A stretch of 64,000 nt of DNA, from sequence record NC_052655.1; one strand, 5' to 3'. This document shows positions 5,188 through 26,237 of this stretch, piece by piece (the stretch's first letter is position 1; each line of letters starts with the position of its first letter). The notes under the pieces were generated by a model that was not told where the DNA came from, did no database searches, and saw only the letters and a list, made by a program, of their open reading frames with translations. Position numbers and translations under genes: made by a program. Origin of the DNA: Escherichia phage alia.

Positions 5188-5802
5188 TTAAATCTTAAAT
5201 TCTTCGTTGTTAAATGAATCCAGTGTACGTACTTCTGGTTCTTTGGGAATGAAAACGTCTTTTACAAAGCGGAACATAGGGAAACGTTCTGCCATTTTAC
5301 GGACGTGTGCTTCTTTACCTGTGTATCGGTGATTAATAGTGCAAATATTAGTTTTCAATGCAAAGTCAAAATCTGGATGATATACATAATTTTGACCATC
5401 CCAGTAACACAAGCAAATAGCTACATCAAAGTTCCATACGATTTCACTGCGTACACCTTCTTCCATGATCATAAAGTTAAACTTAAGATCTTTATAGTAT
5501 GCTTCAAATACCCATTTCAAATGTGGTAGTTCGGCATAAGTGTGTTCTGTTTGCTTAGTAAGTTGTTTAACATTACGTGCACCAACACCCAACATCAAAA
5601 ATTTCTCTACTAGTACGAGTGTATTGTGGTTAGGCATACGCAAGTAAATGTCAATATCTTGCGCAGGTTTCTCTAATCGCCAGTCACGTACAGCGCCGCC
5701 AGCTACAATTGCAAACGGATCTACCAGTTGGCACATACGTAATACTTCTAAAGCTCGTACTTTTTGATCTTCAATATTCATATTTTCTCCTATCGTGTCC
5801 AC
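5188..5802 (-). CDS. putative Pol-beta-type nucleotidyltransferase (CCA-adding/poly(A) polymerase head-like)
   Basis: 'VAGGAVRDWRL...DIDIY' resembles the GGxVRD...DxD head motif of the tRNA nucleotidyltransferase family; only 204 aa. Confidence 0.4.
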   Translation of the reverse strand: MDTIGENMNIEDQKVRALEVLRMCQLVDPFAIVAGGAVRDWRLEKPAQDIDIYLRMPNHNTLVLVEKFLMLGVGARNVKQLTKQTEHTYAELPHLKWVFEAYYKDLKFNFMIMEEGVRSEIVWNFDVAICLCYWDGQNYVYHPDFDFALKTNICTINHRYTGKEAHVRKMAERFPMFRFVKDVFIPKEPEVRTLDSFNNEEFKI

Positions 5803-6386
5803 TCTTTATGTTGTTCTACATGCTCAAGCATTTCATTATACAGTGCTTTAAGATGTGGAACAACTCTTTCATCTTCAGTTTCAAAGAATTTTGTAAGCTG
5901 TTCTGCCTTAGCTTTCAACCAGCAAAGATGCGCTTCAATTTCAGTATTAAAACGTCCCAGTGTTATAACACGTCCATCACGTTGAATATGGGCTTTATAC
6001 TTTTTACGATCTTTTTCGTAACTACATCCTACCATAGTCCCATGAGATCTTTTACTTACTCTATAAGCTAAGAACTTGTTAAGATCTCCTGTTACTAAAA
6101 GACAGGTATCGGGAGAGTAAACTCTCCCTCCTATAATATCTTTATCAAGTTCTAAGTTTTCCCAGTTATCCCAAGTTTGCAACCAGGAGTAGAAATTGGA
6201 GAACAGTTTCCATTCTTCACAAACCGTCACCCCATTATAACAAGGATCACGTTCTTGTTGACAAGGGGAGTAACACCTCCCCAACATAGCCATCCATTTC
6301 ATATAATGCGGCGTTAGTTTCTTACTACCAGGTAGCGTACTCTCGCCTTCCAAATCATTAATACCTTCACCATATACGGTAAGCAT
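5790..6386 (-). CDS. AP2-domain protein, homing-endonuclease-like
   Basis: 'YKAHIQRDGRVITLGRFNTEIEAHLCW' resembles the AP2 DNA-binding domain common in phage HNH homing endonucleases; sits directly upstream of the DNA polymerase gene. Confidence 0.5.
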   Translation of the reverse strand: MLTVYGEGINDLEGESTLPGSKKLTPHYMKWMAMLGRCYSPCQQERDPCYNGVTVCEEWKLFSNFYSWLQTWDNWENLELDKDIIGGRVYSPDTCLLVTGDLNKFLAYRVSKRSHGTMVGCSYEKDRKKYKAHIQRDGRVITLGRFNTEIEAHLCWLKAKAEQLTKFFETEDERVVPHLKALYNEMLEHVEQHKEWTR

Positions 6387-8993: not shown

Positions 8994-9083
8994 TCTCCCT
9001 CCTTAAAATATTTCTAAAGTCTTAATTTGTTAATACTGTACCACAAATTAATTGTTTTGTAAAGGGGCTTTCGCCCCTTCTTG

Positions 9084-9479
9084 TTATTTATTGTCAGCAC
9101 TTAGTTGTACTTTAATAAGGCAATTAGGGACACCATTGGTATTTCTCAAGCCTACACGTTCAATTTTAACAGTGCCTGTCAAACCATTAAAAGTGGAAAC
9201 AATGTTATTAATGTTTTCATCCTTACTAGTGATATCAAGAATAACTTTATCACTGACATTTTTCAACATACGATCTACAAGCTCTCCCACAAAACCACTG
9301 GTAGTTTGAATGAGAAGGTATAGACAACCATCCTCAAACCACAAATGTTCACCATAAGCATAACCGTATGGTTCTAATTCCGATCCATCTTGAAATTTAA
9401 ACTTAGCAATAGTTTTCGTATAATCATACGCTAAAGCAGAAGGGCATACCCCATAGAGGATATTTTCGTTGTCTTTCAT
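9084..9479 (-). CDS. hypothetical protein
   Basis: Track ORF 9084-9608 overlaps the primase-helicase; start moved to internal Met 'MKDNEN' at 9479. Confidence 0.4.
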   Translation of the reverse strand: MKDNENILYGVCPSALAYDYTKTIAKFKFQDGSELEPYGYAYGEHLWFEDGCLYLLIQTTSGFVGELVDRMLKNVSDKVILDITSKDENINNIVSTFNGLTGTVKIERVGLRNTNGVPNCLIKVQLSADNK

Positions 9480-9489
9480 ATTTTTCTCC

Positions 9490-11262
9490 TTAATAAGAAC
9501 CAGCAGAAATATTTTCTGGGTTACTCGTGTATTGATCGTAATCGTGAAGTGTAGCTGTTTTAATCTCATAGAAGAAACTACCTGCTGCACCAGTCTCTGA
9601 GAACTCACGGTTCTTTAGAATGTAGCAATATGTGCGGTTACGTTCCATAGGATCTTCAGCTTGTTTATCACGCTCCAGCGCAATTGTGATACCAGCACCT
9701 TTAGCAAGGAAGCTACTACCCATTGCATCATCTTCTACAATATGTTCATTACTATTGTTAGAAGACTTTTTAACGTGTGAAATTACAACAATGGTTATTG
9801 CATACTCTTTCATAATGCGTTTGAGCCACGTCGCAAGTTCCTCTTGTTGTGACACGTCCATACCAGAAAGCAAGTCAGAATAAGGGTCGATAACAAGAAT
9901 GGTTACTCCGAAATAAATAATCATTTCCAGAACCTTCTCTTTAATCACATCTACGTTAGCTCCACGATCATCACAAACATAGAAACGTGGTGTTCCATCT
10001 TCTCGTTCGTAAAAATCACGAATCTTTTCTTCATTATCTTTTAAAATCTTTTCCTTCTCTTCTTTTGTTTTACGGTGAAGAGGGATGTGCAAGAATGAAG
10101 ACAGTAAGTTACGAGAATACTTCTTATACGTTGCCTCCAAAGATAAAATACCAAGAGTATGTTCTGGGTGTGCAAGAATAATGTGCTTCGTAATCTCGTT
10201 AACCAACAGTGTCTTACCAATACTTGTTTTTGCAAGTATAACAGTAATTTCTTCTTCTACCAAGCCTCCACCTAACATATTAGAAGCAACACGCATGAAT
10301 GGAGGAAGGGTGATCATTTTAGCTTCCAGGCATTCCAAGGCTGCTTCATACAGTACGTTAGAAGCGTAAACACCAGCAGGTGTGTACAGTTTAGCTTTGA
10401 AAAAGCGATCAATAAAATGATCAATTTTTCCTTCTACTAGTGCCTGGTTAGGATCTTTAACATCCGTTAGTTCCATCACGTAAACTTTATTACGTGGTAA
10501 GATTTTAACACATTTCTCAACTGCTGCACGTCCAGCTTCATCATTATCCATACATAGAACAATCTTTTTAAATTGATCTAAGAATTTATAACGATGTTGA
10601 AGCTGCTTATGCAGAGATGTTTCGCCACAAGTACCAGATACTACAGCAGGAACAGGATATTTACCACCCTTGTTATAATCTTTTAGCATCTGTGTTGCAG
10701 CCAGCATATCGTGTTCACCACCAACGATTAGAATAGTACCGCTGTGGTTACGATATTTAAACTCCCCAAAAAGATCACAATCCTTTCCTGTTTCACCGAT
10801 AGGATGTGAGAAATCTTTTGGATCGATACGTTGTTTATACCCAGCAATATTGTAATCTTTAGTTGTAGGGTATAGTGTTGAAATTACTTCGCCAGTAGCT
10901 TCATCGTACATATAACGTACACCGAAAGGCTTAGAGATATCTTCACGAATACCGCGATAACCTTTTGGATTAGTTCCAGTGCTGGCTTTTAGTTTATCAT
11001 GTACTTCTGGATTAAACTCACTACCCAAGATATCCTCCTCTTCAATTTCTTCGCCGTGTGCATTTAACCATTTTTGATCAGGGATAGTAAAGCCACAAGA
11101 AAAACAATGTGCGCCTCGATGGTCTTCATCGGCATCTAAGCCATATACCATCAAATTGTTTTGTGATCGATCACGCCCTCCTTTCATACAACGAGGACAC
11201 CCAGTATGTCCTTCTTGACTTAGATCAATGTTATACCCATATTTATTTACAACATAAGACAC
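9490..11262 (-). CDS. primase-helicase (T7 gp4-like: zinc ribbon, TOPRIM, DnaB-like helicase)
   Basis: Cys4 element 'CPRCMKGG...CFSCG', TOPRIM-like 'IVLCMDNDEAGRAA', Walker A 'LAKTSIGKT'; 590 aa. Confidence 0.85.
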   Translation of the reverse strand: MSYVVNKYGYNIDLSQEGHTGCPRCMKGGRDRSQNNLMVYGLDADEDHRGAHCFSCGFTIPDQKWLNAHGEEIEEEDILGSEFNPEVHDKLKASTGTNPKGYRGIREDISKPFGVRYMYDEATGEVISTLYPTTKDYNIAGYKQRIDPKDFSHPIGETGKDCDLFGEFKYRNHSGTILIVGGEHDMLAATQMLKDYNKGGKYPVPAVVSGTCGETSLHKQLQHRYKFLDQFKKIVLCMDNDEAGRAAVEKCVKILPRNKVYVMELTDVKDPNQALVEGKIDHFIDRFFKAKLYTPAGVYASNVLYEAALECLEAKMITLPPFMRVASNMLGGGLVEEEITVILAKTSIGKTLLVNEITKHIILAHPEHTLGILSLEATYKKYSRNLLSSFLHIPLHRKTKEEKEKILKDNEEKIRDFYEREDGTPRFYVCDDRGANVDVIKEKVLEMIIYFGVTILVIDPYSDLLSGMDVSQQEELATWLKRIMKEYAITIVVISHVKKSSNNSNEHIVEDDAMGSSFLAKGAGITIALERDKQAEDPMERNRTYCYILKNREFSETGAAGSFFYEIKTATLHDYDQYTSNPENISAGSY

Positions 11263-11274
11263 ATGATTCTCCTA

Positions 11275-11544
11275 CTAAAATGATTCGTTTGTCTCCATAA
11301 TATATTGCATTTCCAAATCTTCCATATGTTTCTTAAATTGGTAAACAATTTCCGATGGGGAAATATCTATATCAAAAAGTTCTTTTGTACCAGAATAAAA
11401 CCTAATACCATCAACAATAAGACCACCATAATAATCCCAATCACTTTCTCGTGAGAAAGGATTAGGTTCTTCATAATAGTAATCTACTTCAACAATAATA
11501 GGTTCTTTATTATCTTGTTTATACTCAAAATCAAAAGTGTTCAT
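11275..11544 (-). CDS. hypothetical protein
   Basis: 89-aa acidic ORF. Confidence 0.4.
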   Translation of the reverse strand: MNTFDFEYKQDNKEPIIVEVDYYYEEPNPFSRESDWDYYGGLIVDGIRFYSGTKELFDIDISPSEIVYQFKKHMEDLEMQYIMETNESF

Positions 11545-12488
11545 TATAAATCCTCGATAAGCAGTCTGCGGGTTTCATTTAAATCATCAATATTGTAGTT
11601 ATCTCTTACATACTTAGCAAGAGCCAATCCTTTCTCAATACAAACATCAGGAGATTCGATTAAGTATTCTACAATATCTTTCCACTCTTTAACTGAATCA
11701 GCAAAGAAGATTAGATCTTTAAATTCTTCAGTATAATAGTTCTCTCGTGGCGAACAAACGAGTGGCAAACCTTTAGCACCAGCTTCAAGAATTTTTAAAT
11801 TACTTTTGGCATTATTAAAATGATTATTTACTAATGGAGCTATGGAGATTTGATGACCATCGTATGCTTCCATATAACACTCATAAGGACGAATACCTTC
11901 ATAAACACAATCTGGTTGAATATTTTCTTTAATTTGCAACCATTGAGCACTACTTAACTCTTCATGATCTCTACGAAATCCACATAAAGTTAAATCTTTA
12001 CCAAAATCAGGAAGAATTGCTAAATCATGTTTATGTGTTTCACTTCCCGCCCAAACCAGTGGACTTTTAGAATAACGGTCTTTCGTAAGAACAAACTGTC
12101 CTTCATCAAAAGGTAATCCGTTAGGCACAATATGTACATTATCATTGTATTGGCTTAATTCAACCTTTAATGCTGGAGTTGTTGTAGTTACAAGATCGCT
12201 TCTTTCAAGGAACCATTTTAGATCATCTCGGATTTGATTTTCAAATAATCCTTCAAGCATATGCCCTTCAGGAATAATTAAAGAATCATCCAGATCCATT
12301 ACCAATTTAAACCCAAGTTGTTTAAGAGCCAGGAAACCTGGCTTTCCACGTGTTGGTACTCCATTGAACACAAAAATATTATGCTTAGGATTAATGGTCA
12401 GTTTGCGTTTATATGGCAAAATGATCCTATGAAAATCACATACACTATACTTTTCATTTCCGCGTGTGTCAAGAATAATATTAGGCAT
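11544..12488 (-). CDS. putative glycosyltransferase, GT-B-like (paralog 1)
   Basis: 'KSNLKILEAGAKGLPLVCSP' resembles the GT1/GT4 C-terminal motif; clear paralog of the next gene. Confidence 0.5.
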   Translation of the reverse strand: MPNIILDTRGNEKYSVCDFHRIILPYKRKLTINPKHNIFVFNGVPTRGKPGFLALKQLGFKLVMDLDDSLIIPEGHMLEGLFENQIRDDLKWFLERSDLVTTTTPALKVELSQYNDNVHIVPNGLPFDEGQFVLTKDRYSKSPLVWAGSETHKHDLAILPDFGKDLTLCGFRRDHEELSSAQWLQIKENIQPDCVYEGIRPYECYMEAYDGHQISIAPLVNNHFNNAKSNLKILEAGAKGLPLVCSPRENYYTEEFKDLIFFADSVKEWKDIVEYLIESPDVCIEKGLALAKYVRDNYNIDDLNETRRLLIEDL

Positions 12489-12499
12489 ATAACTCCTTG

Positions 12500-13474
12500 T
12501 TAAAGACTTTCAATAACTTGACGACGCAGTTCATTGGCATCTGCAAGATTATAATTAAGACGAACGTGTTCTGCAAGCATCATACCACGATCTTCTGTGT
12601 ATCTAGGGTTCCTCATTAGCTTGACAACTTCATAATGCCAAGATGCTTTAGAGTCTGCATAGATAACAGCCTTTGCATCTACCGGATTGAAGTACGGCAG
12701 CACAGGAGAACAGATAATAGGAAGACCCTTTGCACCTGCTTCCAAAATCTTCAAATTGCTTTTACAGTTGTTGAAGTCATTATCTACCAGGGGAGCAATT
12801 GCAATACTGTGACCGTCATACACAGACATATACTCACCTAAATTTTTAATAGCTGGTTTATACTGTGCATTTGGAATTTTACGTTTTATTTTAACCCACT
12901 CCGCAGTAGTTAGATACTGACTATTATTTCCAACAGGTGCAGAAGGATACACTTCATACCCTGCAATTGTCAATAGTGTATCATCAAATGTATTAGCTAC
13001 AAGAGATAAATCAGGCTCATGGCTTGCTCCTCCAGCCCAGATAATAGGTGTGTCAGAACTACGGTCTTTTGTCAAAGTAAATTGACCTTCGTCGTAAGGT
13101 AGTGCGTTTCTAATTACGACAACATTACGATTTAAATGACGAATTTTGTAAGCTAGGTATTCTGTTGTTACAGTAACAACATCTGCTAACTTAACCATCT
13201 CTACAATAGTCTTTGAATGATTAGTAAATACGCCAGCCATATAATGTTCAGGATTAAGTGAATAAAAATCATCTAAATCAACAATAATCTTAACACCTTG
13301 TGCCTTCAGGCGTTTAACCTCGTCTGCTCCACGAGAATACACTCTATTAAAAACTAAAACGTCTTTCTTAGGTTTAAACGTATTTCCAGCAAATGGCATT
13401 ACAATACGATGGTAATCACAACCACTGCCTAACTTATTATCACACTTAAGTACAGGAGTATTAGGATTTACCAT
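12500..13474 (-). CDS. putative glycosyltransferase, GT-B-like (paralog 2)
   Basis: 'KSNLKILEAGAKGLPIICSP'; start set at 'MVNPNTPV', which aligns with the paralog start and has a GAGGAGG RBS. Confidence 0.5.
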   Translation of the reverse strand: MVNPNTPVLKCDNKLGSGCDYHRIVMPFAGNTFKPKKDVLVFNRVYSRGADEVKRLKAQGVKIIVDLDDFYSLNPEHYMAGVFTNHSKTIVEMVKLADVVTVTTEYLAYKIRHLNRNVVVIRNALPYDEGQFTLTKDRSSDTPIIWAGGASHEPDLSLVANTFDDTLLTIAGYEVYPSAPVGNNSQYLTTAEWVKIKRKIPNAQYKPAIKNLGEYMSVYDGHSIAIAPLVDNDFNNCKSNLKILEAGAKGLPIICSPVLPYFNPVDAKAVIYADSKASWHYEVVKLMRNPRYTEDRGMMLAEHVRLNYNLADANELRRQVIESL

Positions 13475-14147
13475 ATTTTTGAGCCTCCTCATAAGAGATA
13501 AAAGTTTTACCATTGCGAAGATCCTCCAGGGATTGTTTATATTGTTCCCAGTTTACACCAATCCCCTGTTCTTTCTCTTCTTTTGACAGATTCGCAAAAG
13601 GTAAAGGATTGTCTCCAAATACATCATCAGGATGGATAAACGCCATAATTCGAATAGGACATGGCACGCCTTGAATACCTCGGTTCAAACCTGCCAGTGG
13701 AACGCGATGAATCCACTCTGCATCTTCATATCCATAACCGTGGGTGTATGAGCGGAAATAGCCAGCTTTCTCAATAACTGCACGGGAATACATACCAAAC
13801 TGGCACATACCTAGTTCCCAAATAACCACTTCCCCTTCAATACCTTTTACTTTATCTTTAAAGTATTCAGGCATACCAAAGAAATCCCAACCATTTTCCT
13901 TCGCCTGTTTTACAAAATATGTTTCCCAACCTTGAACAACAGGATAGCAATCATCATCAAAAATAAACCAGTAATCATACCCTTCATCATAAAACTTTTT
14001 CATCAGTTCATTACGAGCATATGCAACACCTTTTCGCTCCCGATCATACTGCACAACAAAAGTAGCATTAGGATCAGTCACAAGATAATCTTTAAGAGGA
14101 CGCTTACCTACAGTAATAACACCAACACCAATTTTTGTATTTTCCAA
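13461..14147 (-). CDS. putative glycosyltransferase, GT-A-like
   Basis: Possible DxD motif in 'WFIFDDDCYP'; 228 aa. Confidence 0.4.
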   Translation of the reverse strand: MENTKIGVGVITVGKRPLKDYLVTDPNATFVVQYDRERKGVAYARNELMKKFYDEGYDYWFIFDDDCYPVVQGWETYFVKQAKENGWDFFGMPEYFKDKVKGIEGEVVIWELGMCQFGMYSRAVIEKAGYFRSYTHGYGYEDAEWIHRVPLAGLNRGIQGVPCPIRIMAFIHPDDVFGDNPLPFANLSKEEKEQGIGVNWEQYKQSLEDLRNGKTFISYEEAQKYGKS

Positions 14148-14156
14148 AATAACTCC

Positions 14157-14720
14157 TTAAATAATTTTATTCATGTCTTGACAATGTAAAAGGTGTGAAA
14201 TAGCTTTTCTAGGATCATCATTACCTAAACGGTATGTGTGAAATAAATATAACCCACGTAGTAAACCTAGCCTTTTATTGTTAGCGTGCAATGCTTTAGA
14301 GAAAATTATATCAAACTGTATTGATCTTTCCTCAAAAGGGATTTCATTCCACAGACTCTTACGAAAGAGAAGAAAGAATCCTGCTAAGATAGCATCTGTA
14401 GGTACTTCCTCTATTGAGTTTCCCCATTCTAGATGTGCTCTTTTTGCAATCTCAATGTGGTGTAATATATTTGGATCTTCACTTCTTTCATTATTAAATA
14501 ATTGATATGTTGATCCCAATCTATTACAAGATGCACCAAGAACATCAAAATCAGGATTTGAACGGACTATTGATTCCAGCCAAGCAGGTTGTTCTGGAAG
14601 AAGAAACATTGTATCAATGTCTCTTAGGCAAATCCAACTATCTTCTGGTAAAACACTTATTGTGTCATTGATACCTTTTCCAATATCTCCAGAAAGATAG
14701 GGAGTTATGTGAAATATCAT
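14157..14720 (-). CDS. hypothetical protein, possible small glycosyltransferase
   Basis: 'RDIDTMF' could be a DxD-like motif; weak. Confidence 0.35.
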   Translation of the reverse strand: MIFHITPYLSGDIGKGINDTISVLPEDSWICLRDIDTMFLLPEQPAWLESIVRSNPDFDVLGASCNRLGSTYQLFNNERSEDPNILHHIEIAKRAHLEWGNSIEEVPTDAILAGFFLLFRKSLWNEIPFEERSIQFDIIFSKALHANNKRLGLLRGLYLFHTYRLGNDDPRKAISHLLHCQDMNKII

Positions 14721-14777
14721 ACTCCCTCCGTATTATTACTTTAGCATTTTTAGACTAAAAAGTCCAAATGGTTTTAC

Positions 14778-14972
14778 CTATTGATTACGTTTTGCGAGTT
14801 CCATTTGGATAGCTAAACTGTGATCTCGTGCTTCCATATACTCTTTATATGTTTCATTAAGATGATCACGACAAACATCACGCAGTTTAATCAGTTTATC
14901 TGTAGGGATACCACTAAGATCATCCCAAGATTTTACAACTTCACCAGTATCATTGATCCCAATGGTTTTCAT
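14778..14972 (-). CDS. hypothetical protein
   Basis: 64-aa ORF. Confidence 0.35.
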   Translation of the reverse strand: MKTIGINDTGEVVKSWDDLSGIPTDKLIKLRDVCRDHLNETYKEYMEARDHSLAIQMELAKRNQ

Positions 14973-15228
14973 CTACAACCTCCTTAATTGCTACAGCACA
15001 GTTTTTGCAGATACACTGCCCTTTACCTTTAGAAATCTGGATGTAAGGTTCATTTTCATTTTCGCCCTTACGTGAGTCATATATTACAGAATTGAAGCAC
15101 ACAACGCAAATATTTTTTAAGATTGTATACTTATCAACTTTCTTTTTTGTTTTAAAGTTAACTTCAATAACATCAGCCATCAGTGTAACACTCCCAGTAT
15201 GTTGCTTTGTGACATAACCATAGAACAT
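14950..15228 (-). CDS. hypothetical Cys-rich protein
   Basis: 'CVVCFN...CICKNC' suggests a zinc-binding motif. Confidence 0.35.
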   Translation of the reverse strand: MFYGYVTKQHTGSVTLMADVIEVNFKTKKKVDKYTILKNICVVCFNSVIYDSRKGENENEPYIQISKGKGQCICKNCAVAIKEVVDENHWDQ

Positions 15229-15458
15229 TCAACATTATCGTGACTACGTGAAAAACGTTCCCAAACATCTTCATCGACTCGTAAAGCTATACAAGGATAG
15301 ACGTTATCATTGATCATTTCAATTGAATAAACATCCACATTGTCTTCGTCTTCGATGAACATCATTGCAAACTGTTCTAAATGTTTCCTAATGTAATGTA
15401 CATCCTCTTCTGTAAGACCAATAACAAGATAACTTGCAACGATAACGCCATCTTTCAT
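15180..15458 (-). CDS. hypothetical protein
   Basis: 92-aa ORF. Confidence 0.35.
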   Translation of the reverse strand: MKDGVIVASYLVIGLTEEDVHYIRKHLEQFAMMFIEDEDNVDVYSIEMINDNVYPCIALRVDEDVWERFSRSHDNVECSMVMSQSNILGVLH

Positions 15459-15468
15459 CTATATCTCC

Positions 15469-15978
15469 TTAGCGATAGAATTGATGTTCTTTGTAGCGGT
15501 ACACTAGAACCATATCTTTTTCCCAGTGTGCTCTTATTGTAGATTTTTTAAAGTATAATGCTCCTTTTGTAATATCTAATGCAATTCGTAATTCTGGAAA
15601 ATGCGTATCGAGATAAAGTAGACGTTCTGCTATAGCCTTAGCTTCCTTCCACTTATCACGTTCCATAACGTTGAATGTCTTTGTGTAAGAGAATTGTCCT
15701 TTTTGAAACAAAACTTCTTTTATAGTATCAGGGAAATATGAATCTCTAGCCCTATTCAATACTACATTACCAACAGCAGACATACCGCGCTTTCCTTGAT
15801 TACGACTTTCTGCATAGATTGCACAAGCTAATAGATTTTCTTTACTATCACGCTTTGTACACTTGTGAACTACTTTAGCAGTTTTTACGTTTGCAGCTTC
15901 GGCTTGCGCCACGACAGGTGTAAATGTAAAAGCAGTTAAGGATAGTAACGCAATTGCGACAAAGGTTTTTATTGACAA
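15469..15978 (-). CDS. secreted SleB-type cell wall hydrolase
   Basis: N-terminal signal peptide 'IKTFVAIALLSLTAFTFTPVVAQA'; 'CAIYAESRNQGKRGMSAVGNVVLNRARDSYFPDTIKEVLFQKGQFS' matches the SleB/Hydrolase_2 core; TTG start with AGGAGG RBS. Confidence 0.65.
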   Translation of the reverse strand: MSIKTFVAIALLSLTAFTFTPVVAQAEAANVKTAKVVHKCTKRDSKENLLACAIYAESRNQGKRGMSAVGNVVLNRARDSYFPDTIKEVLFQKGQFSYTKTFNVMERDKWKEAKAIAERLLYLDTHFPELRIALDITKGALYFKKSTIRAHWEKDMVLVYRYKEHQFYR

Positions 15979-16071
15979 ACTTGCCTCCTATTTTGTTAAA
16001 CGAACTTTTATTGTAACACAGAAGAGGCTGTTTTGCAAGTGGAGGGGGGATAATCCCCCTCTTACACCCTG

Positions 16072-16674
16072 TTAGATGTTGTAAACCTTCGTATGAGTTA
16101 CTACACCATCTTCTACAAAATCAATACGTTCTTGATCCGTAACTAGTGCAGACAACACTTTAAATTTAATTGTTACACGTTCAAAAGCTGGTTGACCATC
16201 TTTAAGATAATTATGTTCAGTTGTTACTGTCTTGTTTACAAAATCAACTTTCGCTTTACCGTTTTCGCGCAAGTGGAATGTTTTTCCTGCTTTATACACA
16301 ATTTCAACATTACCTTCGAGAGTAATTCCTTCAAAAAGTTCGCCCTCTTCTTCATTTTCTTCACTTTTGAACAGACGACGAAACTCTTCCATATCAAGAT
16401 AAACAACATCTTCAGAATAACTATCAGTAAGGTATGTCTTACCATCCATTAACCCGAAATATTGCCAGATCGCAGAATAAACATCACTAGTTGATCCAAG
16501 GGTATCTCTGAGTTTAGTTCCACGGATTACTTCATAAACTTCAAAATTGAAACCAGACTGCAAAGCATTAAACAGTACATCACTAACTTCTAAAGCATAA
16601 TCTTCATTGTTGTCAATATCCACAAGAAAATTGCCGCTACGAATAAGTTTTTGACCTTCTAAAGTAATACTCAT
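16072..16674 (-). CDS. hypothetical protein
   Basis: 200-aa ORF immediately upstream of the TerD-like gene. Confidence 0.5.
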   Translation of the reverse strand: MSITLEGQKLIRSGNFLVDIDNNEDYALEVSDVLFNALQSGFNFEVYEVIRGTKLRDTLGSTSDVYSAIWQYFGLMDGKTYLTDSYSEDVVYLDMEEFRRLFKSEENEEEGELFEGITLEGNVEIVYKAGKTFHLRENGKAKVDFVNKTVTTEHNYLKDGQPAFERVTIKFKVLSALVTDQERIDFVEDGVVTHTKVYNI

Positions 16675-16701
16675 TGTTTTCTCCTCTTCTATTTAAAATA
16701 T

Positions 16702-16726
16702 GCGCCCCGAAGGGCGCTATGATTTA
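16702..16726 (-). terminator. intrinsic terminator hairpin (GCGCCC-cgaa-GGGCGC)
   Basis: GC hairpin just downstream of the TerD-like stop codon. Confidence 0.4.
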
Positions 16727-17323
16727 TTACTCGAACCAATCGTCGCCAGCGCCAAACGCTTTAACTACATCATAAATGTCAAGTCCAGCTTTACCTACAC
16801 CATATGCTTTCAGTTTCCATTCGTTATCTTCCCGCACCAGGGAGGCAACGTGGCAAATGGTATTACCTGCAAGTTCTGGAGCCAAGAAGTCAAAGTCCAG
16901 CAGTTCAACGTTACGTTCATCATCGAAGATTTTAAGGAAACCTTCGGTAGCGTGACCAAGGCGTTTCTTACCCGTTTCGTCATCAATAGTAATTACGAAT
17001 GCAATTTCCTGTGCTTCAGCAGAGATATTATCCAGTGTAACATCAATCTGCTCCATTTGCCCTACACCGTCACGAACATCTTCACCTGCAAAAGTAGAAC
17101 GTTCAGGATCAAATTTCTGTGCGTAGCATACCAGGTGGCGAGGAGACAACAGTTCCGGCAGACCAGATGCATTGTGTCGGCAAATCAGAGCACTAACATC
17201 CAGATCCAGTTTTTCGTTAGATTTCCAAGAGAATTCCAGACGAATGCGTTTCAGTGCTGGTGCAATCTTTTTCAGAGAAACTTTTTCGCTAGAACCTTTT
17301 TTCAGGGAAATTTTCTGAGTCAT
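16727..17323 (-). CDS. TerD-family protein
   Basis: 'ISLKKGSSEKVSLKKIAPAL', 'DLDVSALI', 'FVITI' and 'NEWKLKAYGVG' align with E. coli TerD; AGGAGG RBS. Confidence 0.85.
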   Translation of the reverse strand: MTQKISLKKGSSEKVSLKKIAPALKRIRLEFSWKSNEKLDLDVSALICRHNASGLPELLSPRHLVCYAQKFDPERSTFAGEDVRDGVGQMEQIDVTLDNISAEAQEIAFVITIDDETGKKRLGHATEGFLKIFDDERNVELLDFDFLAPELAGNTICHVASLVREDNEWKLKAYGVGKAGLDIYDVVKAFGAGDDWFE

Positions 17324-17395
17324 AATTTATTACCTCCTTTGTTGTTAATTTACGTTGTCTATTTTACTAATCTTTTCTACAAAGTCAAGCGTTTT

Positions 17396-18190
17396 TTACG
17401 CTTTTGCTCCAAATTTTTTAACCCACTCGCCAAACTCTTCAGATAGCAGTTTATCGTAAAGTTCTTCGTCAGACAAGGACAAATCTGCAATACCGATAAA
17501 ATCAACATTATCGTATTCTTTTGCCAAGTCTTTCAGGAATTTAAAGTTTGCATTACCTACACCGACCATAAACCAGTAAACAGGAGTGTTGCGGTGTTTG
17601 TTCAGCAAACTACGTACTGCTGAAGTATCCATGTTCTCCCCGTCAGTTTGGAAGAAAATCATTGCAGGAGTACGATCAACTTGTGCATCAGTATCTACAA
17701 CCTGTTCTATAACAGTACGTGTAACTTCTACAAGTTCTTTTTTACCAGTTAGTTTAGCAAGGAAACCCTTAGCCGGAACTTCTTCATACTCAACGACTTG
17801 GCGTGTAATATTTTTCATAGGTACACTACCGAAGTATGTATCATAGATCTCTTGCATTACTGGAGCATAAGCAGTACCACCATTGATGCAAACATTAGAC
17901 ATACAAGAGCCGACATAATCATCATATACATCAGCCGTTGCAGGAGGCAGTTCAAAAGAAGAACTATTGAAAGCCCACATGTCAATCTGTGCATTATCAT
18001 CAAACTTCATACCAAACGGCAGCAGCTTACCTACAAAATCACTAACAGTGCCATCACGATACAGCTCACACATACTACCCGAAATATCTAAGGCGCTTCC
18101 GACACGAAGAACAACATCGTTAATCTTTTTCTTACGCAGAGATACGGTAAGAGTTTCTTGACGTTTTTTAAGACTGATTTTATTGGACAT
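17396..18190 (-). CDS. von Willebrand factor A domain protein (TerY-like)
   Basis: MIDAS motif 'DISGSM'; N-terminus 'ISLKKRQETLTVSLRKK' echoes the TerD N-terminus. Confidence 0.65.
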   Translation of the reverse strand: MSNKISLKKRQETLTVSLRKKKINDVVLRVGSALDISGSMCELYRDGTVSDFVGKLLPFGMKFDDNAQIDMWAFNSSSFELPPATADVYDDYVGSCMSNVCINGGTAYAPVMQEIYDTYFGSVPMKNITRQVVEYEEVPAKGFLAKLTGKKELVEVTRTVIEQVVDTDAQVDRTPAMIFFQTDGENMDTSAVRSLLNKHRNTPVYWFMVGVGNANFKFLKDLAKEYDNVDFIGIADLSLSDEELYDKLLSEEFGEWVKKFGAKA

Positions 18191-18191
18191 A

Positions 18192-18461
18192 TTATTTCTC
18201 CTTTCTGAGTGTAATGTTAGTAACTTCTAAATCCACTTCTACCATTTCTGTATCATATGAAATACAGCTAAGTTGACCTCTTTGTGAACCGTTCAGACAC
18301 ATTGCTTGGTTTGTATTAACTTTAATAAACACTAAGTTTCTGAACGTATCTAAACCAGAATCTTGATACGCAACATAATATACAAATGTATCACCTGCAT
18401 CAAGTTCTCCAAAACATTTAGGTTCATCTGATTCGTCGTCTTTGATATTAAATTTAAGCAC
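18192..18461 (-). CDS. hypothetical protein
   Basis: 89-aa ORF. Confidence 0.4.
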   Translation of the reverse strand: MLKFNIKDDESDEPKCFGELDAGDTFVYYVAYQDSGLDTFRNLVFIKVNTNQAMCLNGSQRGQLSCISYDTEMVEVDLEVTNITLRKEK

Positions 18462-19017
18462 TATCTTCTCCTTTACCTGCTCTCAAGCCTAAATAGAAAG
18501 CCTCTCTGGTGATCTTTTGCAACTCGTTTAAAGAGATAGTTACAACTAAATCATCTTCAATTTCTAGCTTTGAGTCTTCTTCTGTCTCAATGCAAGTATT
18601 ATGCACTTTGTGGTAAGGATTGTCAACACGTTTAAATTTATTATTTTCAGTGCTGAAGAAGCAATCTGGATCTTCTTCCCCATCACCCCAACCCTGGTTA
18701 GGATCTTCTTCAGATCTTTCTGTTGGGATCTCGCCTGTAAAGTGCTCTTCTAATACCAGAGCAATCCCATCTCCAAGATCGGAAGAGAACATCAAATTAC
18801 AAACTTCTTCCCAAGGCATAGACCACTTAAATCTTTTACGATTGCCATGTTTATCTTCTTCGTTAGAGAAAACACTACCATAGCTATCATAATTCCCATA
18901 CATCTCTTCGATAACCTTACCACCTTTCAAAAGAAATAGGTAGCAAGGAGAGCCATCGAAAGAGGTAGAAAGAGCAGCATTACCAGACTCTTTGCACAAG
19001 AAACTAAAACATCCCAT
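18454..19017 (-). CDS. hypothetical protein
   Basis: 187-aa acidic ORF. Confidence 0.45.
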   Translation of the reverse strand: MGCFSFLCKESGNAALSTSFDGSPCYLFLLKGGKVIEEMYGNYDSYGSVFSNEEDKHGNRKRFKWSMPWEEVCNLMFSSDLGDGIALVLEEHFTGEIPTERSEEDPNQGWGDGEEDPDCFFSTENNKFKRVDNPYHKVHNTCIETEEDSKLEIEDDLVVTISLNELQKITREAFYLGLRAGKGEDSA

Positions 19018-19217
19018 TATACACCAGCCTTAAGATCAATTATAGCCAAAGTTGTTTCAGAGTGTGTTTGCTCGTCTACAGGTGCAGTCATATGATAATA
19101 CAAAAAGTCTTCGGCATCATACCAATCTGACTCTTGACCTTGTTTCCAACCATCAATGAAAGCATCTTCCATAATGGTTTGTAACTCTTCACGAGTTAAG
19201 TGAATATCTTTACTCAT
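19017..19217 (-). CDS. hypothetical protein
   Basis: 66-aa ORF; start overlaps the upstream stop. Confidence 0.4.
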   Translation of the reverse strand: MSKDIHLTREELQTIMEDAFIDGWKQGQESDWYDAEDFLYYHMTAPVDEQTHSETTLAIIDLKAGV

Positions 19218-19450
19218 TACACATTCTCCTCTTTTACCAATTCCATCGTTGAACTATCAAAACCATCTTTAGAAGAATAGGTATAGACAGAACGTAGTTC
19301 TCGCAGGACAGTGAATACATTAGGATCATCTAACCAAGCATCCTGGAGGAGAACATAACGATCTTCATTGTCGTACTGGACGGCAATCATAGAACCAGAC
19401 AGTTTGTAAATTTTAATATTCATAATATATTTCTCCTTAAAGTAGACCAC
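19217..19450 (-). CDS. hypothetical protein
   Basis: 77-aa ORF. Confidence 0.4.
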   Translation of the reverse strand: MVYFKEKYIMNIKIYKLSGSMIAVQYDNEDRYVLLQDAWLDDPNVFTVLRELRSVYTYSSKDGFDSSTMELVKEENV

Positions 19451-20540
19451 GTTTAACAGTTTGAATCATACCATCTTCAAGAGATTGTACTTCTTGGATG
19501 TAATCAATACGAGCAGCACGGGCTTCAGTATTGATTCGGTTAGTTTCTTCTAACATTTTAACTAAGTTTTCTTGATCGCGACGTAATGTTTCAATATCCA
19601 ATACTTGACGATTAGCAAGTTGTGTAGCTTCAATTTGGTTTTGTGCAGCCAGATCACTACCCATTGCAATAGCAGCATTAAATTCGTTCAGTACATTGTT
19701 CTGTGTATCTGCTGCTTTCTTCTGGCGTAGACTTTCAATATACATAGAAAAGTTTGCAGAGTAAGCAGGGATAACATTATTCACAATATTACGGGCTGAT
19801 CGCATCAAACTTGCAGATACTTTCTGCATACTTTGTACACGTGGCCCCATCTGAACACACAGTAAACGCAAGGCTTTCAGGTCTGCAATACGAATTTCAA
19901 GCAGATCCATAGTATCACGAGTACGTTGACGCTCTTCTACTTCATTTTCAGGTAGTGTATTAAGGCGAACTTCTTCTTTTTCATAAGTAGCTGTTAGAAG
20001 CTCTATATCCCTGTTTAAGCTAAGAGCATATTTTGCAATAGCCTCTTCTAAACGTTGCAGATATCGTAAAGAATCTTCTTCTTTTTTCAAGTCTGTTTGG
20101 AGTGTCTTTACCAAACCTTCAATACGATTATTGATGGTGTCAAATTCTCCAAACAAATCTTCTTTCATACCTAAAACTTTCTTAAATAGTTTACCTAAAC
20201 CTTTAGATTGTTTAATAGAATTAGGATCAAGTTGCTTTGCTTGCTTAATAAGTGCGGTTAAACGTTCACTCATTTCATCTCCCTGGGATGAACGCTGGTG
20301 TTTAAGCACTTCGGCATTAAGGTTACGAAGAGTAAGTCCTGCATCAGCACCAACTTGTTCAATCTCTTCACGAGACATTGGAGGCAGCATTTGTACAGGT
20401 CGTGCAACAGCAGGGGCATATACAGGGCTTGCATCCATAGCACTTGGAGCAAACAAAGACTTACTTTTTTCTGTTGTTGCCGTGAATACACTCATTTCAG
20501 ACGGTTTGCTTTTTACGGCACTGATAAAAGGACTGGACAT
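19437..20540 (-). CDS. TelA-like protein (toxic anion resistance family), tentative
   Basis: 367-aa helical protein of TelA size sitting between the TerD/vWA and TerC genes; GGAGG RBS. Family call is by context and composition only. Confidence 0.45.
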   Translation of the reverse strand: MSSPFISAVKSKPSEMSVFTATTEKSKSLFAPSAMDASPVYAPAVARPVQMLPPMSREEIEQVGADAGLTLRNLNAEVLKHQRSSQGDEMSERLTALIKQAKQLDPNSIKQSKGLGKLFKKVLGMKEDLFGEFDTINNRIEGLVKTLQTDLKKEEDSLRYLQRLEEAIAKYALSLNRDIELLTATYEKEEVRLNTLPENEVEERQRTRDTMDLLEIRIADLKALRLLCVQMGPRVQSMQKVSASLMRSARNIVNNVIPAYSANFSMYIESLRQKKAADTQNNVLNEFNAAIAMGSDLAAQNQIEATQLANRQVLDIETLRRDQENLVKMLEETNRINTEARAARIDYIQEVQSLEDGMIQTVKRGLL

Positions 20541-20608
20541 TCAATTTCCTCCATATTCTTTAGTAGATGGTGATACCTCTGTACCACCATCATAACACAA
20601 ATTAAGTA

Positions 20609-21460
20609 TTAAACAAACATATCTAAATAATTTGTAGTAATAAATGCTCCATCTGCTTCCAGATTAACATAACCAGTAGCATTAGTGGTTAAGAAATCCA
20701 GATCGAAGGACTCTTTAACACCCCGTACCTCAACACGAGAGATATCGAATACAGGTAGTGTAACAGCCTCTTCGTGCAATACCGTACCTTTGTAGGTTGC
20801 CTTAATGATAAACTTGATATTACCCGTTCCAGCATCATACAAAACACTTTCAAACCCTTTGAGAGTATACTTATCACCAGAAGTGAAGTGCAAAGTTGCT
20901 TTGTTTACAGTACGTTTCTTACGAGGAGTTCCTTTCACACGTTTATGATCACTACGTTTTTTGTACTTAGGAATGAATACAAACGATACACTATCAAGAA
21001 AGGTATCAACATCAAGGATTTTAATATCCTCTGTTGCAGCAAATTTTGAAGTCGTTGCATCAAAATGCTTTTCCCTGCGATCATACATAAAGATATCAAA
21101 ACGATCTTCTAAATCAAACAAATTATGTATCTTAATTTCAGAATGCTTGCACATTGCAGCAACCTTAAACTCTTCAAAACGTGGGTGTTCTACCAGTTCT
21201 TCAAGTTTTACACCAAAGACAGTATATGGCTTCGAAGTTTTTTCTGGCGTTGGCATTACAGAAGCATAATCACCGATTGCGCTTTTAAAGCAAAATTGTT
21301 CTTGACCTGTATTTTTACCAACGAATTTACAATATTCGTCATCGTGCATACTTTCTTTGGTAGTACCAACAAACTCAAAACCATCTTTATTCTTCTCAAG
21401 AATTTCTTGATTAAAGATCCAACCTTCCAGGCGATACACTTTACCAACTTCTAGTTTCAT
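20609..21460 (-). CDS. hypothetical protein
   Basis: 283-aa ORF. Confidence 0.5.
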   Translation of the reverse strand: MKLEVGKVYRLEGWIFNQEILEKNKDGFEFVGTTKESMHDDEYCKFVGKNTGQEQFCFKSAIGDYASVMPTPEKTSKPYTVFGVKLEELVEHPRFEEFKVAAMCKHSEIKIHNLFDLEDRFDIFMYDRREKHFDATTSKFAATEDIKILDVDTFLDSVSFVFIPKYKKRSDHKRVKGTPRKKRTVNKATLHFTSGDKYTLKGFESVLYDAGTGNIKFIIKATYKGTVLHEEAVTLPVFDISRVEVRGVKESFDLDFLTTNATGYVNLEADGAFITTNYLDMFV

Positions 21461-21495
21461 CTGTTTCTCCTTCTTATTTAATCTGTATTAAATTA

Positions 21496-22086
21496 TTAAC
21501 GACGACGTGAGCTACTAAAACTACGTTTCGACGAAGAATAACTTTTCGAAGACTTACTATAAGAGCTAATAGGACTTGAGTAAGACTTACGAGCAGAGTA
21601 ATCACTATTCACTTTTGTTGTTGATGGGCGTGAATACGTTTGTACACTTTGCTGCTTAATTGTGTTTTGTTTAGTGGTTGTATATGTATTTACAGGTTTA
21701 TCATAAAAACTACGCTTTTGTGTTGTATATGATTTACTGTTAGTTGTAGGAGCAGCATTGTTATTAATAATGGTTGTGTTGCTACCACCATCTCTATAAC
21801 CACCACCGCCACTATTACCACTCAACATATGACCAAGAAGCATACCTGTAGCAAAGTCACCTACACCAGAAGAACCACTACCACCTCCTTGCACAACAAC
21901 TGTGGAAGGTTGTGCAGGTGCTGCTTGAACAACTTGAGGTGCAGGTTGATTTACATATTGTTCATCTACCATCTGATTTGGTGTTTGTTGGTAACGTTGA
22001 TTTTGTACATTTTCAGAATCATCACAACCTACCAGCAATGCACTACCTAAAACAACTGCAACAATAAAAGATTTAATGTTTTTCAT
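21496..22086 (-). CDS. putative lipoprotein, low-complexity Gly/Ser/Thr/Tyr-rich
   Basis: 'MKNIKSFIVAVVLGSALLVGC' is a signal peptide with lipobox LVGC; start moved to the internal Met with a GAGAGG RBS. Confidence 0.55.
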   Translation of the reverse strand: MKNIKSFIVAVVLGSALLVGCDDSENVQNQRYQQTPNQMVDEQYVNQPAPQVVQAAPAQPSTVVVQGGGSGSSGVGDFATGMLLGHMLSGNSGGGGYRDGGSNTTIINNNAAPTTNSKSYTTQKRSFYDKPVNTYTTTKQNTIKQQSVQTYSRPSTTKVNSDYSARKSYSSPISSYSKSSKSYSSSKRSFSSSRRR

Positions 22087-22279
22087 TTGTAACCCTCTCA
22101 TTTAAAGTCTCAACACAATTTTTAAAATCCCTAGAGAAACAATACATCTGTTCTCCGTTCCTGTTGATAGTAATTGTATGGTTATCAATATATGTTGTCA
22201 AGATAAAAATCAAACAAAATAACCCTAAAGCAAAACAAATATTTTCAAACAGAATCCAAAGAACACGTAAAACCACCAT
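22073..22279 (-). CDS. hypothetical small membrane protein
   Basis: 68-aa hydrophobic ORF. Confidence 0.35.
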   Translation of the reverse strand: MVVLRVLWILFENICFALGLFCLIFILTTYIDNHTITINRNGEQMYCFSRDFKNCVETLNERVTNEKH

Positions 22280-22289
22280 CAGATCACCT

Positions 22290-22310
22290 CAACAAAGCCC
22301 CCGAAGGGGC
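22290..22310 (-). terminator. intrinsic terminator hairpin (GCCCC-cgaa-GGGGC)
   Basis: GC hairpin 8 nt downstream of the TerC-like stop. Confidence 0.45.
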
Positions 22311-22318
22311 TTAATGAA

Positions 22319-23296
22319 TTAAGCAACAGTCTGGTCTTCTTTTTCAGGGAAGATTAAACTTGCAACAACACCCAACCCAAGAGTACCTAACACAATATAC
22401 ATACTGATCGTCGGATCAATGTGTGCTGGCAGGAAACTCATTTTTGCGTGCAGAGTTTCTGCAAACGGGTGATACATCAGTTTTACACCCACAAATACCA
22501 GGACTACGATAACTGCTTTCTCCAGATGAACCAAATACTTCAGTGCAACACTAAGAACAAAGAACAGAGCACGTAAACCTAAGATTGCACAGAGCATCGA
22601 AGAGAACACCAGCAGAGGTTCTTGTGTCACTGCAATTACTGCTGGAACAGAGTCTACTGCAAAGATTACGTCAACCATTTCCATTACAAACACACAAACC
22701 AGAGCCGGAGTTGCTACACGAACACCATTCTTGATTGTGAAGAACTTCTCACCATCCATCTGATCAGATACAGGGAACAGCTTACGAACAATGCGAGTAG
22801 CCCAGTGTTTAGAGTAATCAACTTCTGCATCATTATCTCCAGCGAATACCATTTTAGCCGCACAGAAAAGGATGACAGCACCGAAGAAGATATTAACATA
22901 CCAGCCCAAACTCAACAAGTAAGTGCCTACTGCTACAAACACACCTCGGAAGACAATCGCACCTGCAATACCCCAAAGTAGAATTTTGTGCTGCAAGTGT
23001 GTGCTTTTAATACCAAAACTTGCGAAGACTGCCACAAATACTACTAAGTTATCTACAGAAAGAGATTTCTCCAACACATACCCACTCAAGAACAAGCTCG
23101 CAAAATCAGCACCGTGTTGGAAGTATACAAAACCATAGTAGGCTAATGATACCCCAATCCAGAAAATTGACCAACCAACTGCCGATTTAAATGAAATCTC
23201 TTTGTTTTCTCTGTGTCCAAAGAAATCAATACAAATCGACAAGACTAAAATACCCACTAAAACAACCACATCAATAATTGGGAAACCCAGTTGCAT
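22319..23296 (-). CDS. TerC-family integral membrane protein
   Basis: Multi-pass hydrophobic protein with 'LSVDNLVVFVAVF' and 'DVIFAVDSVPAVIAVT', the two signature motifs of TerC; AGGAGA RBS. Confidence 0.8.
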   Translation of the reverse strand: MQLGFPIIDVVVLVGILVLSICIDFFGHRENKEISFKSAVGWSIFWIGVSLAYYGFVYFQHGADFASLFLSGYVLEKSLSVDNLVVFVAVFASFGIKSTHLQHKILLWGIAGAIVFRGVFVAVGTYLLSLGWYVNIFFGAVILFCAAKMVFAGDNDAEVDYSKHWATRIVRKLFPVSDQMDGEKFFTIKNGVRVATPALVCVFVMEMVDVIFAVDSVPAVIAVTQEPLLVFSSMLCAILGLRALFFVLSVALKYLVHLEKAVIVVLVFVGVKLMYHPFAETLHAKMSFLPAHIDPTISMYIVLGTLGLGVVASLIFPEKEDQTVA

Positions 23297-26068: not shown

Positions 26069-26237
26069 TTTTAATCCTCCGTCCAAAAGAATATCATCTG
26101 CTTAATTTTATTGATTTCTTGATGTAGTAACTTTCCAGCATGTGATTGATCTTTAATATTGACAGCAAGAATTTCAAGTTCCGTTAGTTTTTCTTGGATA
26201 GCTTTATATTCATCATCTGTAAGCATTTTCTTCCCCT

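Follow-up and report, generated by a model that had tools for sequence, protein, structure and literature searches.

Escherichia phage alia carries a compact cluster of glycosyltransferase (GT) genes, and here we consider which molecules the encoded enzymes modify. Specifically, we analyzed 64,000 nucleotides of the phage genome (sequence record NC_052655.1), a stretch that we call the window. The window belongs to a phi92-like myovirus (Justusliebigvirus, Stephanstirmvirinae) with 99% identity to published genomes, and its GT cluster lies on the minus strand at 11544–14720. A preliminary description of the window had counted three to four putative GTs there. The cluster exists at that position, and the count is four. 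We call the genes A to D; they are orthologues of phi92 gp163 (A), gp164 (B), gp165 (C), and gp166 (D). On the minus strand, D is the first gene of the cluster (14157–14720; 187 amino acids) and specifies a predicted minimal GT-A enzyme. It is followed by C (13461–14147; 228 amino acids from a TTG start), also a predicted GT-A enzyme, by B (12500–13474; 324 amino acids from an ATG), a predicted GT-B enzyme of the GT4-like kind, and by A (11544–12488; 314 amino acids), the GT-B paralogue of B. The mechanically called open reading frame (ORF) of B extends to 13513. The most likely start is the ATG at 13474, which has a Shine–Dalgarno sequence, GAGGAGG, 8 nucleotides upstream and agrees with phi92 gp164 and most homologues. 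From this start, the 5′ end of B overlaps the 3′ end of C by ~14 nucleotides.

The GT cluster itself is known, since the four genes are already annotated as GTs in the phi92 RefSeq record and in others. The phi92 record labels gp163–166 glycosyltransferases and adds fold notes (TreT-like, GT-B, ppGalNAcT2-like, and GT). Similarly, the BASEL record of phage EmilieFrey lists two as “putative disaccharide synthase” and two as “putative glycosyltransferase.” Our literature search found no paper that tests the function of gp163–166. A megablast search with window positions 11200–15000 as the query matched 55 phage records, 51 of them at a query coverage of at least 80% and with 95–99.3% identity; nearly all of these 51 are Justusliebigvirus. 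Orthologues of gp163–166 are 98–99% identical to the window genes in Justusliebigvirus and ~70% identical in Phapecoctavirus. We note that five GenBank records, MG065639, MG065650, MG065655, MG065656, and MG065672, are entered as “Campylobacter phage” A150, B15, C2, C3, and A141 with Campylobacter jejuni as host, and are 97–99% identical to Escherichia coli Justusliebigvirus, Phapecoctavirus, or Vequintavirus phages across the GT-region genes. Given this near-identity to coliphage genomes, their Campylobacter host labels look doubtful.

The cluster sits between the primase-helicase gene (9490–11262) and a gene for a SleB-type cell-wall hydrolase with a hydrophobic N-terminal segment (15469–15978, minus strand; Hydrolase_2, E 6.5e-20), as had been described. 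This hydrolase is called “endolysin” in phi92, yet the genome family has a separate endolysin beside its rml genes. Two small genes bracket the cluster: a homologue of gp162 forms the conserved downstream flank (11275–11544, minus strand; 89 amino acids, function unknown), and a homologue of gp167 lies on the opposite flank (14778–14972). They match phrog_4240 and phrog_5932. In the Vequintavirinae phage PVP-SE1, homologues of the two adjoin each other upstream of the primase-helicase gene with no GT between them, and the gp162 homologue has only small ORFs around it. Thus, the cluster was inserted in the Stephanstirmvirinae lineage, and its placement among replication genes carries little functional weight. 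A probable single transcription unit, 9079–16702 on the minus strand, contains the cluster and would co-transcribe it with the primase-helicase gene. In a consensus scan, terminator-like hairpins occur only at 16702–16717 and 9062–9079, and the genes between them are tightly packed or overlapping, in the order gp171, hydrolase, small ORFs, D-C-B-A, gp162, primase-helicase, and gp160. A promoter scan did no better than on shuffled sequence (37 sites versus 30 expected).

Folds of the four enzymes

All four proteins match PHROG glycosyltransferase families, with E values from 1e-79 to 1e-149. A and B align with 41% identity over 324 columns (E 8e-82) and, by this alignment, are true paralogues, as had been supposed from a motif that they share. 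The motif, KSNLKILEAGAKGLP, lies at 11763–11807 in A and at 12719–12763 in B (minus strand), in the nucleotide-sugar-binding block of the GT-B C-terminal domain. It falls in the family's most conserved block, in which the K-S-N-L-K-x-L-E-x-G columns are invariant across 37 homologues. A passes the Pfam profile PF13524 (Glyco_trans_1_2) with 26.8 bits against a gathering cut-off of 25, and B alone is sub-threshold. Across the B/A family, 31 of the 37 homologues match PF13524 (best E 9e-10), 24 match PF13692 (Glyco_trans_1_4), and only 9 show weak matches to the N-terminal Glyco_transf_4 profile. B matches phrog_7162 at E 6e-149; a B-family profile found no match among Protein Data Bank (PDB) sequences. 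The profile matches place A and B among the GT4-like glycosyltransferases, with a predicted GT-B fold. A is a second copy present in Justusliebigvirus and Phapecoctavirus, in which each record has two family places, and is absent from Klebsiella phage phi1_175008. The locus of that phage holds only D and B; gene content varies within Stephanstirmvirinae.

The DDD motif from which a GT-A-like ORF had been proposed belongs to C, where it is part of an FDDD sequence (13950–13961) that is invariant among homologues; C also contains a YG-x-ED motif. The fourth, small candidate of the preliminary description is D, which possesses an invariant D34-x-D36 (RDIDT, 14610–14624). C matches phrog_2456 (E 2e-79) and D matches phrog_14179 (E 5e-113). 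AlphaFold models both proteins confidently (pLDDT 89.6 for C and 94.9 for D), and in Foldseek both models match GT-A enzymes at probability 1.00. The PDB neighbors are generic GT-A proteins at TM-scores of 0.4–0.5, those of D including the GT-A domains of LH3, LARGE1, RmlT, COLGALT1, and ppGalNAcT. These neighbors assign neither a specific family nor a donor sugar. In BFVD, the models match mostly unnamed viral GT-A proteins. Neither C nor D has a supra-threshold Pfam match (D has no Pfam match at all), single-sequence and profile searches of PDB sequences with C and D gave no meaningful match, and NCBIfam scans of A to D returned nothing. An hhalign comparison of the D and C profiles reached only a marginal 3% probability. 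On the strength of the models and the invariant motifs, C and D belong to the metal-dependent DxD glycosyltransferases with a Rossmann-like GT-A fold.

Finally, the maximum 19-residue Kyte–Doolittle hydropathy of A to D is 0.8–1.2, so all four proteins lack a transmembrane segment. Likewise, none of them matches a Gtr family, and no membrane-embedded parts of a Gtr-type seroconversion system were found among them.

Cassettes and C-terminal residues in related phages

Homologues of these genes occur as a set in other phages. The “bacterial” homologues of B, from Serratia, Enterobacter, and Pseudomonas, all lie inside prophages, and there the order D, C, B is kept, at 34–50% identity. In two enterobacterial prophages, D-C-B lies between lysis genes and an HNH-TerS-TerL-capsid series, in one case with an inserted nucleotide-sugar epimerase/dehydratase gene. 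In a Pseudomonas prophage, D-C-B directly follows the major capsid gene and precedes the connector genes, with overlapping reading frames. C-B pairs stand directly upstream of TerL/portal/capsid genes in further contigs. More distant arrangements are similar: Streptomyces phage KimJongPhill encodes a B-like GT, a UDP-glucose dehydrogenase, and a methyltransferase just before TerS; a metagenomic phage has, between its terminase and portal genes, a sugar cluster that includes a D-like gene; and Cellulophaga phage phi18:2 encodes a D-like domain fused to a TOD1/MUCI70-type GT, by a Methyltransf_24 gene and between portal and capsid. By conserved order and homology, the phi92 lineage has, in B, C, and D, its own copy of a portable D-C-B cassette. 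We note that the phi18:2 neighbor, gp38, is annotated as a “DNA methylase” from its match to PF13578 (Methyltransf_24). In gp108 of mycobacteriophage Che8, the GT2 domain is joined to this same domain, which comes with a TylF-type O-methyltransferase match, and gp38 is more likely a sugar O-methyltransferase than a DNA methylase.

The position beside HNH, terminase, and head genes recalls phage Che8. According to passages in three papers (PMC11256854, PMC12619734, PMC12363180), virions of Che8, Corndog, and Myrna are glycosylated, and their capsid and tail-tube subunits carry the glycans at the C-terminus; one of these passages describes Che8 gp110 as essential for capsid glycosylation (PMC12363180). 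As relayed by papers that cite it, the original report on these mycobacteriophages (Freeman et al. 2023, Cell Host Microbe 31:1216) saw little evidence of virion glycosylation in other phages. In Che8, gp108–110 are found at the right end of the genome; an HNH gene comes next and then, once the genome ends are joined, the terminase gene. A genome scan with a Serratia prophage capsid protein as the query located 24 sister prophage loci. At the locus where L004 and L005 carry D-C-B, twelve of these sisters encode a 485-amino-acid GT with 42–47% full-length identity to mycobacteriophage Bipolar gp103 (E to 1e-132) and a 197-amino-acid GT with 31–39% identity to Che8 gp110 (E to 1e-27). One further sister has only the gp110-like gene, and five have neither. 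Conservation of this degree between mycobacteriophages and enterobacterial prophages is, at the level of sequence, strikingly close across phyla. The hosts of prophages with the 485-amino-acid GT are Citrobacter, Enterobacter, Kosakonia, Phytobacter, Kluyvera, Atlantibacter, Erwinia, and Pantoea (loci L025–L046); in these loci the capsid gene is preceded, ~3–5 kb upstream, by the gp103-like and gp110-like genes, and the prophages also encode a related HNH endonuclease.

The D-C-B and Che8/Bipolar-type cassettes share a locus and little homology. Thus, they are largely non-homologous and positionally interchangeable. Each comprises two to four small, soluble GTs encoded by the phage, and each frequently has Methyltransf_24 sugar O-methyltransferase genes as neighbors; the D-C-B homologues in prophages and viral contigs also share the placement beside HNH, terminase, and head genes. 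C-like proteins show distant homology to the gp103-type GT of Cheoctovirus (gp103 of Bipolar), in its N-terminal GT-A domain (E 1e-7 to 8e-15).

The cassette type co-varies with the last residues of the capsid and tail-tube proteins. In Che8, the capsid protein ends -KTGS and the tail-tube protein -SDGS, and in the 13 prophages with Che8-type GTs both proteins end -[G/T]S. Most of the tube proteins of these 13 are too divergent for tblastn with the L005 tube protein, and all are tagged. Where D-C-B is present, the endings are instead -TT: -GANTTT on the capsid and -TANPTT on the tube protein of L005, -SANPTT on the capsid of L004 (its tube gene is off the contig), and -TSSSTT and -TSEPTT, respectively, in the Pseudomonas prophage L007, whose capsid is unrelated. 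In Cellulophaga phage phi18:2, the capsid ends -VSGT and the tube -TVGT. The GT-negative sisters L038, L044, L045, and L047 have no such tag on either protein. Overall, tagged capsid proteins occur in 15 of 15 GT-positive and in 1 of 5 GT-negative prophages (Fisher p ~0.001, with kinship ignored). The tagged GT-negative case, L034, is a Pantoea sp. prophage with -PGS on both capsid and tube; no GT was detected in the 10 kb upstream, which hold an ABC-transporter-like ORF instead. Its GT may lie elsewhere or may have been lost recently.

An independent test used a viral-contig scan with the B-family alignment, which covered 79 loci and 1169 non-nested ORFs. Seventeen of these ORFs end in -TT, versus 4.3 expected from the internal dipeptide frequency. 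Most of the 17 have the ending -PTT and stem from loci with a D-like gene as well. Of nine from D-positive loci, seven encode a major capsid protein (Phage_capsid or Phage_cap_E) or a tail-tube protein (Phage_tail_3, TTP_11/12, or TTP_17); of the other two, one weakly matches a “virion structural protein” and one is unknown. Thus, several unrelated capsid and tube families carry the same tag when a D-containing cassette is present. This result is the strongest evidence that the acceptors of the cassette would be the C-termini of exposed structural proteins.

For the phi92-like lineage, the corresponding evidence is weaker. Among the 243 ORFs of phage EmilieFrey, only two have TT within the last three residues, and one of them encodes the major capsid protein. 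Specifically, the phi92-like major capsid protein ends -KLTTA, an ending identical in Phapecoctavirus, and the capsid proteins of GT-negative Vequintavirinae end -TLKGA and -TGTFA. The head decoration protein ends -FTS, and that of a GT-positive Klebsiella relative ends -ATS; in GT-negative relatives the endings are -TVGE and -VTSI. These endings suggest the capsid shell as the acceptor in phi92-like phages, nominating it without establishing it. We also considered the Ser/Thr-rich C-terminus of the tail sheath as a GT-linked tag and rejected it: GT-positive Phapecoctavirus lacks this tail, and GT-negative Vequintavirinae have a similar one.

Candidate acceptors

The hypothesis is that A to D carry out O-glycosylation of virion proteins, possibly with dTDP-rhamnose, and we hold it with about even confidence. 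In this scheme, D, C, B, and A would be soluble cytoplasmic enzymes made during infection. Together they would probably assemble a short O-linked glycan, with about four sugars at most, on virion proteins of the phage itself, a system of the same kind as the capsid and tail-tube glycosylation of Che8. The initiator, acting on a C-terminal Thr of a structural protein, could be D because of its association with the tag; the remaining GTs would then extend the glycan, and A, the lineage-specific duplicate of B, would add a further sugar or linkage. Donors would be host nucleotide sugars and, where RmlABCD is present, phage-made dTDP-L-rhamnose, which is plausible for at least one step. In siphophages, we infer that the acceptor sites are the Thr-Thr-COOH tails of the major capsid and tail-tube proteins. 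In the phi92-like lineage, the cassette with its duplicated GT-B gene would have been inserted between the two small conserved genes of the replication block, and the most plausible acceptor would be the exposed capsid shell, with its -KLTTA capsid and -FTS decoration proteins.

Several observations weigh against this hypothesis. The tie to the Che8 system is positional, apart from the distant similarity of C to the gp103 N-terminal domain. BLASTP of A to D against Che8 gp108–110 gave no match at E<1, and hhalign comparisons of the D and C profiles with the gp110 family gave probabilities below 1%; A to D lack detectable homology to gp108, gp109, and gp110. Unlike the mycobacteriophage operons, the D-C-B cassettes go with a -TT rather than a -GS tag and with a Gram-negative host. 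The window cluster, moreover, sits with replication genes of a large lytic myovirus, probably co-transcribed with primase-helicase, and not with head genes. The phi92-like proteins have no clean -TT-COOH end: the capsid ends -TTA and the tube -LTIQ and -LAKS. The tube is buried in myoviruses. The reading of the phi92 endings as tags is partly post hoc and draws on few related genomes. More generally, the tag correlations are uncorrected for phylogeny, and contigs with only a C-B pair (L017–19 and L021) show no obvious C-terminal tag. Finally, we found no paper reporting glycosylated phi92-like virions.

The preliminary description had proposed two targets, DNA bases and host surface polysaccharide. 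The evidence favors neither; comparison with related cassettes points instead to a third target, absent from that description: virion proteins of the phage itself. Regarding DNA, the GTs could place sugars such as rhamnose on hydroxymethylated pyrimidines as a protection against restriction, as in T-even or TET-associated systems. Olsen et al. 2020 noted that phi92-like and phAPEC8-like phages encode the whole dTDP-rhamnose pathway and speculated that rhamnose is attached to hydroxymethylated nucleotides (PMC7552041). A location in the replication-gene block, a Dcm-like C5 methyltransferase, and the Rml pathway among the nucleotide-metabolism genes of the genome family are consistent with that proposal, although the cluster was inserted at its site. 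Like the T-even DNA GTs and the TAGT family, the window enzymes are phage-encoded GT-B and GT-A proteins near replication genes, and C is weakly similar to that group around its DxD. This similarity is slight. C scores 24.1 bits against TAGT (PF20691), below the cut-off of 27.5 and over residues 16–79 only. Comparison with T-even DNA glucosyltransferases yielded a single match, of C to phrog_842 (T2/T6 beta-glucosyl-hydroxymethylcytosine alpha-glucosyltransferase; E 4e-5), spanning only the 43 residues 28–70 in the generic DxD region; A, B, and D gave none. The partner enzymes were not found, either. As the preliminary description had observed, no hydroxymethylase occurs among the window proteins, including none of the ThyA family. 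The thymidylate synthase of near-identical EmilieFrey is Thy1/ThyX (PF02511), not ThyA, and all pyrimidine hydroxymethylases known to us derive from the ThyA fold. No TET or JBP protein occurs among the scanned window proteins or in the EmilieFrey annotation, in a genome scan that was non-exhaustive. Further, Maffei et al. found phi92-like phages and Vequintavirinae “exceptionally susceptible” to restriction-modification, “despite ... a putative dTDP glycosylation machinery” (PMC8594841). The homologous cassettes lie in head modules of temperate siphophages, with no base-modification genes seen nearby. The rhamnose pathway is also loosely linked to the cluster: rmlABCD of EmilieFrey lies ~70 kb from the GT genes, outside the window, and the Klebsiella Stephanstirmvirinae with only D and B have few or no RmlA matches. 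This imperfect co-occurrence means that the Rml pathway and the GT cluster are not strictly coupled, and rhamnose is only a plausible donor. (In Escherichia phage Eryne, PQ529420, positions 115719–116111 match only the C-terminal half of RmlA, and the gene may be truncated.) We consider DNA glycosylation the least probable of the readings discussed here, and we regard the view that Rml and GT genes of these coliphages signify DNA glycosylation as a recurring mis-assumption in the literature.

Remodeling of the host envelope is also improbable in our estimate, if less so than DNA glycosylation. Here, the GTs would act on undecaprenyl-linked O-antigen, enterobacterial common antigen (ECA), NGR glycan, or lipopolysaccharide (LPS)-core intermediates, and the purpose would be receptor masking (superinfection exclusion) or keeping progeny off cell debris. 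The receptors of phi92-like phages are indeed surface glycans (ECA/NGR, LPS core; PMC8594841, PMC11990801), and dTDP-rhamnose is a classic O-antigen precursor. The structural neighbors of C and D include the cell-wall glycopolymer GTs TarP, RmlT, and WrtF. TarP of Staphylococcus aureus, RmlT of Listeria, and the Gtr systems are, like A to D, phage- or prophage-borne sugar transferases, TarP and RmlT have the GT-A fold, and RmlT uses dTDP-rhamnose. The likeness to TarP and RmlT is, however, one of fold only (TM-score 0.4–0.5, 11–17% identity); A to D lack their oligomerization and membrane modules, and, unlike the Gtr systems, which are membrane proteins, they possess neither membrane segments nor Gtr-like components. 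The cassette's location between lysis and terminase genes in two prophages could mark an accessory-gene region, but the homologous cassettes generally lie in late head/tail operons of temperate phages rather than in typical lysogenic-conversion positions, with the Pseudomonas one wedged between capsid and connector genes and the Cellulophaga one between portal and capsid. Altering glycans that have already been exported would presumably be slow within a lytic cycle. Envelope remodeling also leaves unexplained the co-variation between cassette type and the endings of the capsid and tube proteins. Between these two proposals in probability, and likewise improbable, stands another acceptor altogether. 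This could be a protein of the phage or the host that is not part of the virion, or the product could be a glycoconjugate, soluble or lipid-linked, with a role in anti-defense or metabolism. The phi92-like acceptor is unproven, locus content varies (only D and B in the Klebsiella phage), co-occurrence with RmlA is imperfect, and unusual metabolic genes abound in the surrounding genome (a Ter cluster, macrodomain/phosphoribosyltransferase/HAD genes, and nicotinamide adenine dinucleotide salvage). The JGI automatic annotation of some B homologues as “processive diacylglycerol glucosyltransferase” would fit a lipid acceptor, but this label reflects only the generic GT-B fold. Nothing supports such an acceptor specifically, and the head-module linkage and tag co-variation favor structural proteins.

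Some of those metabolic genes lie close to the cluster. A Ter-type stress cluster, an unusual module for a lytic coliphage, occupies 16727–23296 on the minus strand and continues to 26086. It encodes TerD (16727–17323), a vWA-TerF-like protein (17396–18190), TelA (19437–20540; Pfam E 5e-35), and TerC (22319–23296; E 1e-38), followed at ~23853–26086 by macrodomain, phosphoribosyltransferase, and HAD-like genes named from the EmilieFrey annotation. Downstream of the DNA polymerase gene, the minus-strand ORF 5790–6386 encodes a 198-amino-acid protein to which PF26128 (Gad2, anti-Gabija) is assigned in an identical metagenomic contig; the Pfam scan run here gave it no match. Its minus-strand neighbor, 5188–5802, weakly matches a nucleotidyltransferase (PolyA_pol head), and the two could possibly be an anti-defense pair. 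Finally, a 465-amino-acid protein encoded at 42819–44216 on the plus strand combines a T5orf172 (GIY-YIG-like) domain and five CapR-homology repeats. In the EmilieFrey annotation its orthologue is only 325 amino acids long, so this region varies between close relatives.

Implications for phage virions

A broader proposition is that Gram-negative tailed phages, including phi92-like and phAPEC8-like phages, glycosylate their own capsids via exchangeable GT cassettes that each read a short C-terminal tag on exposed structural proteins: -TT for D-C-B, -[G/T]S for the Che8/Bipolar type, and possibly -GT in Cellulophaga phages. We put this forward tentatively and judge it somewhat more likely to be wrong than right. 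To our knowledge, mycobacteriophages are so far the only phages in which virion glycosylation has been demonstrated; there it shields particles from antibodies. If the proposition is true, virion glycosylation would be a widespread, modular, cross-phylum trait and not an actinobacteriophage peculiarity. If the virion-protein hypothesis is right, phi92-like phages would join a class of systems otherwise known from actinobacteriophages alone, and the pattern of exchangeable cassettes and C-terminal tags in enterobacterial prophages would be new and directly testable. Should the rule that connects cassette type to the C-terminal dipeptide of capsid and tail-tube proteins hold, it could help to predict phage glycosylation and to engineer it.

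Phi92-like and Phapecoctavirus phages infect a very broad range of hosts and serve as candidates for therapy and biocontrol. A glycan coat on their particles, if it exists, would bear on the neutralization, pharmacokinetics, particle stability, and immune recognition of therapy phages.

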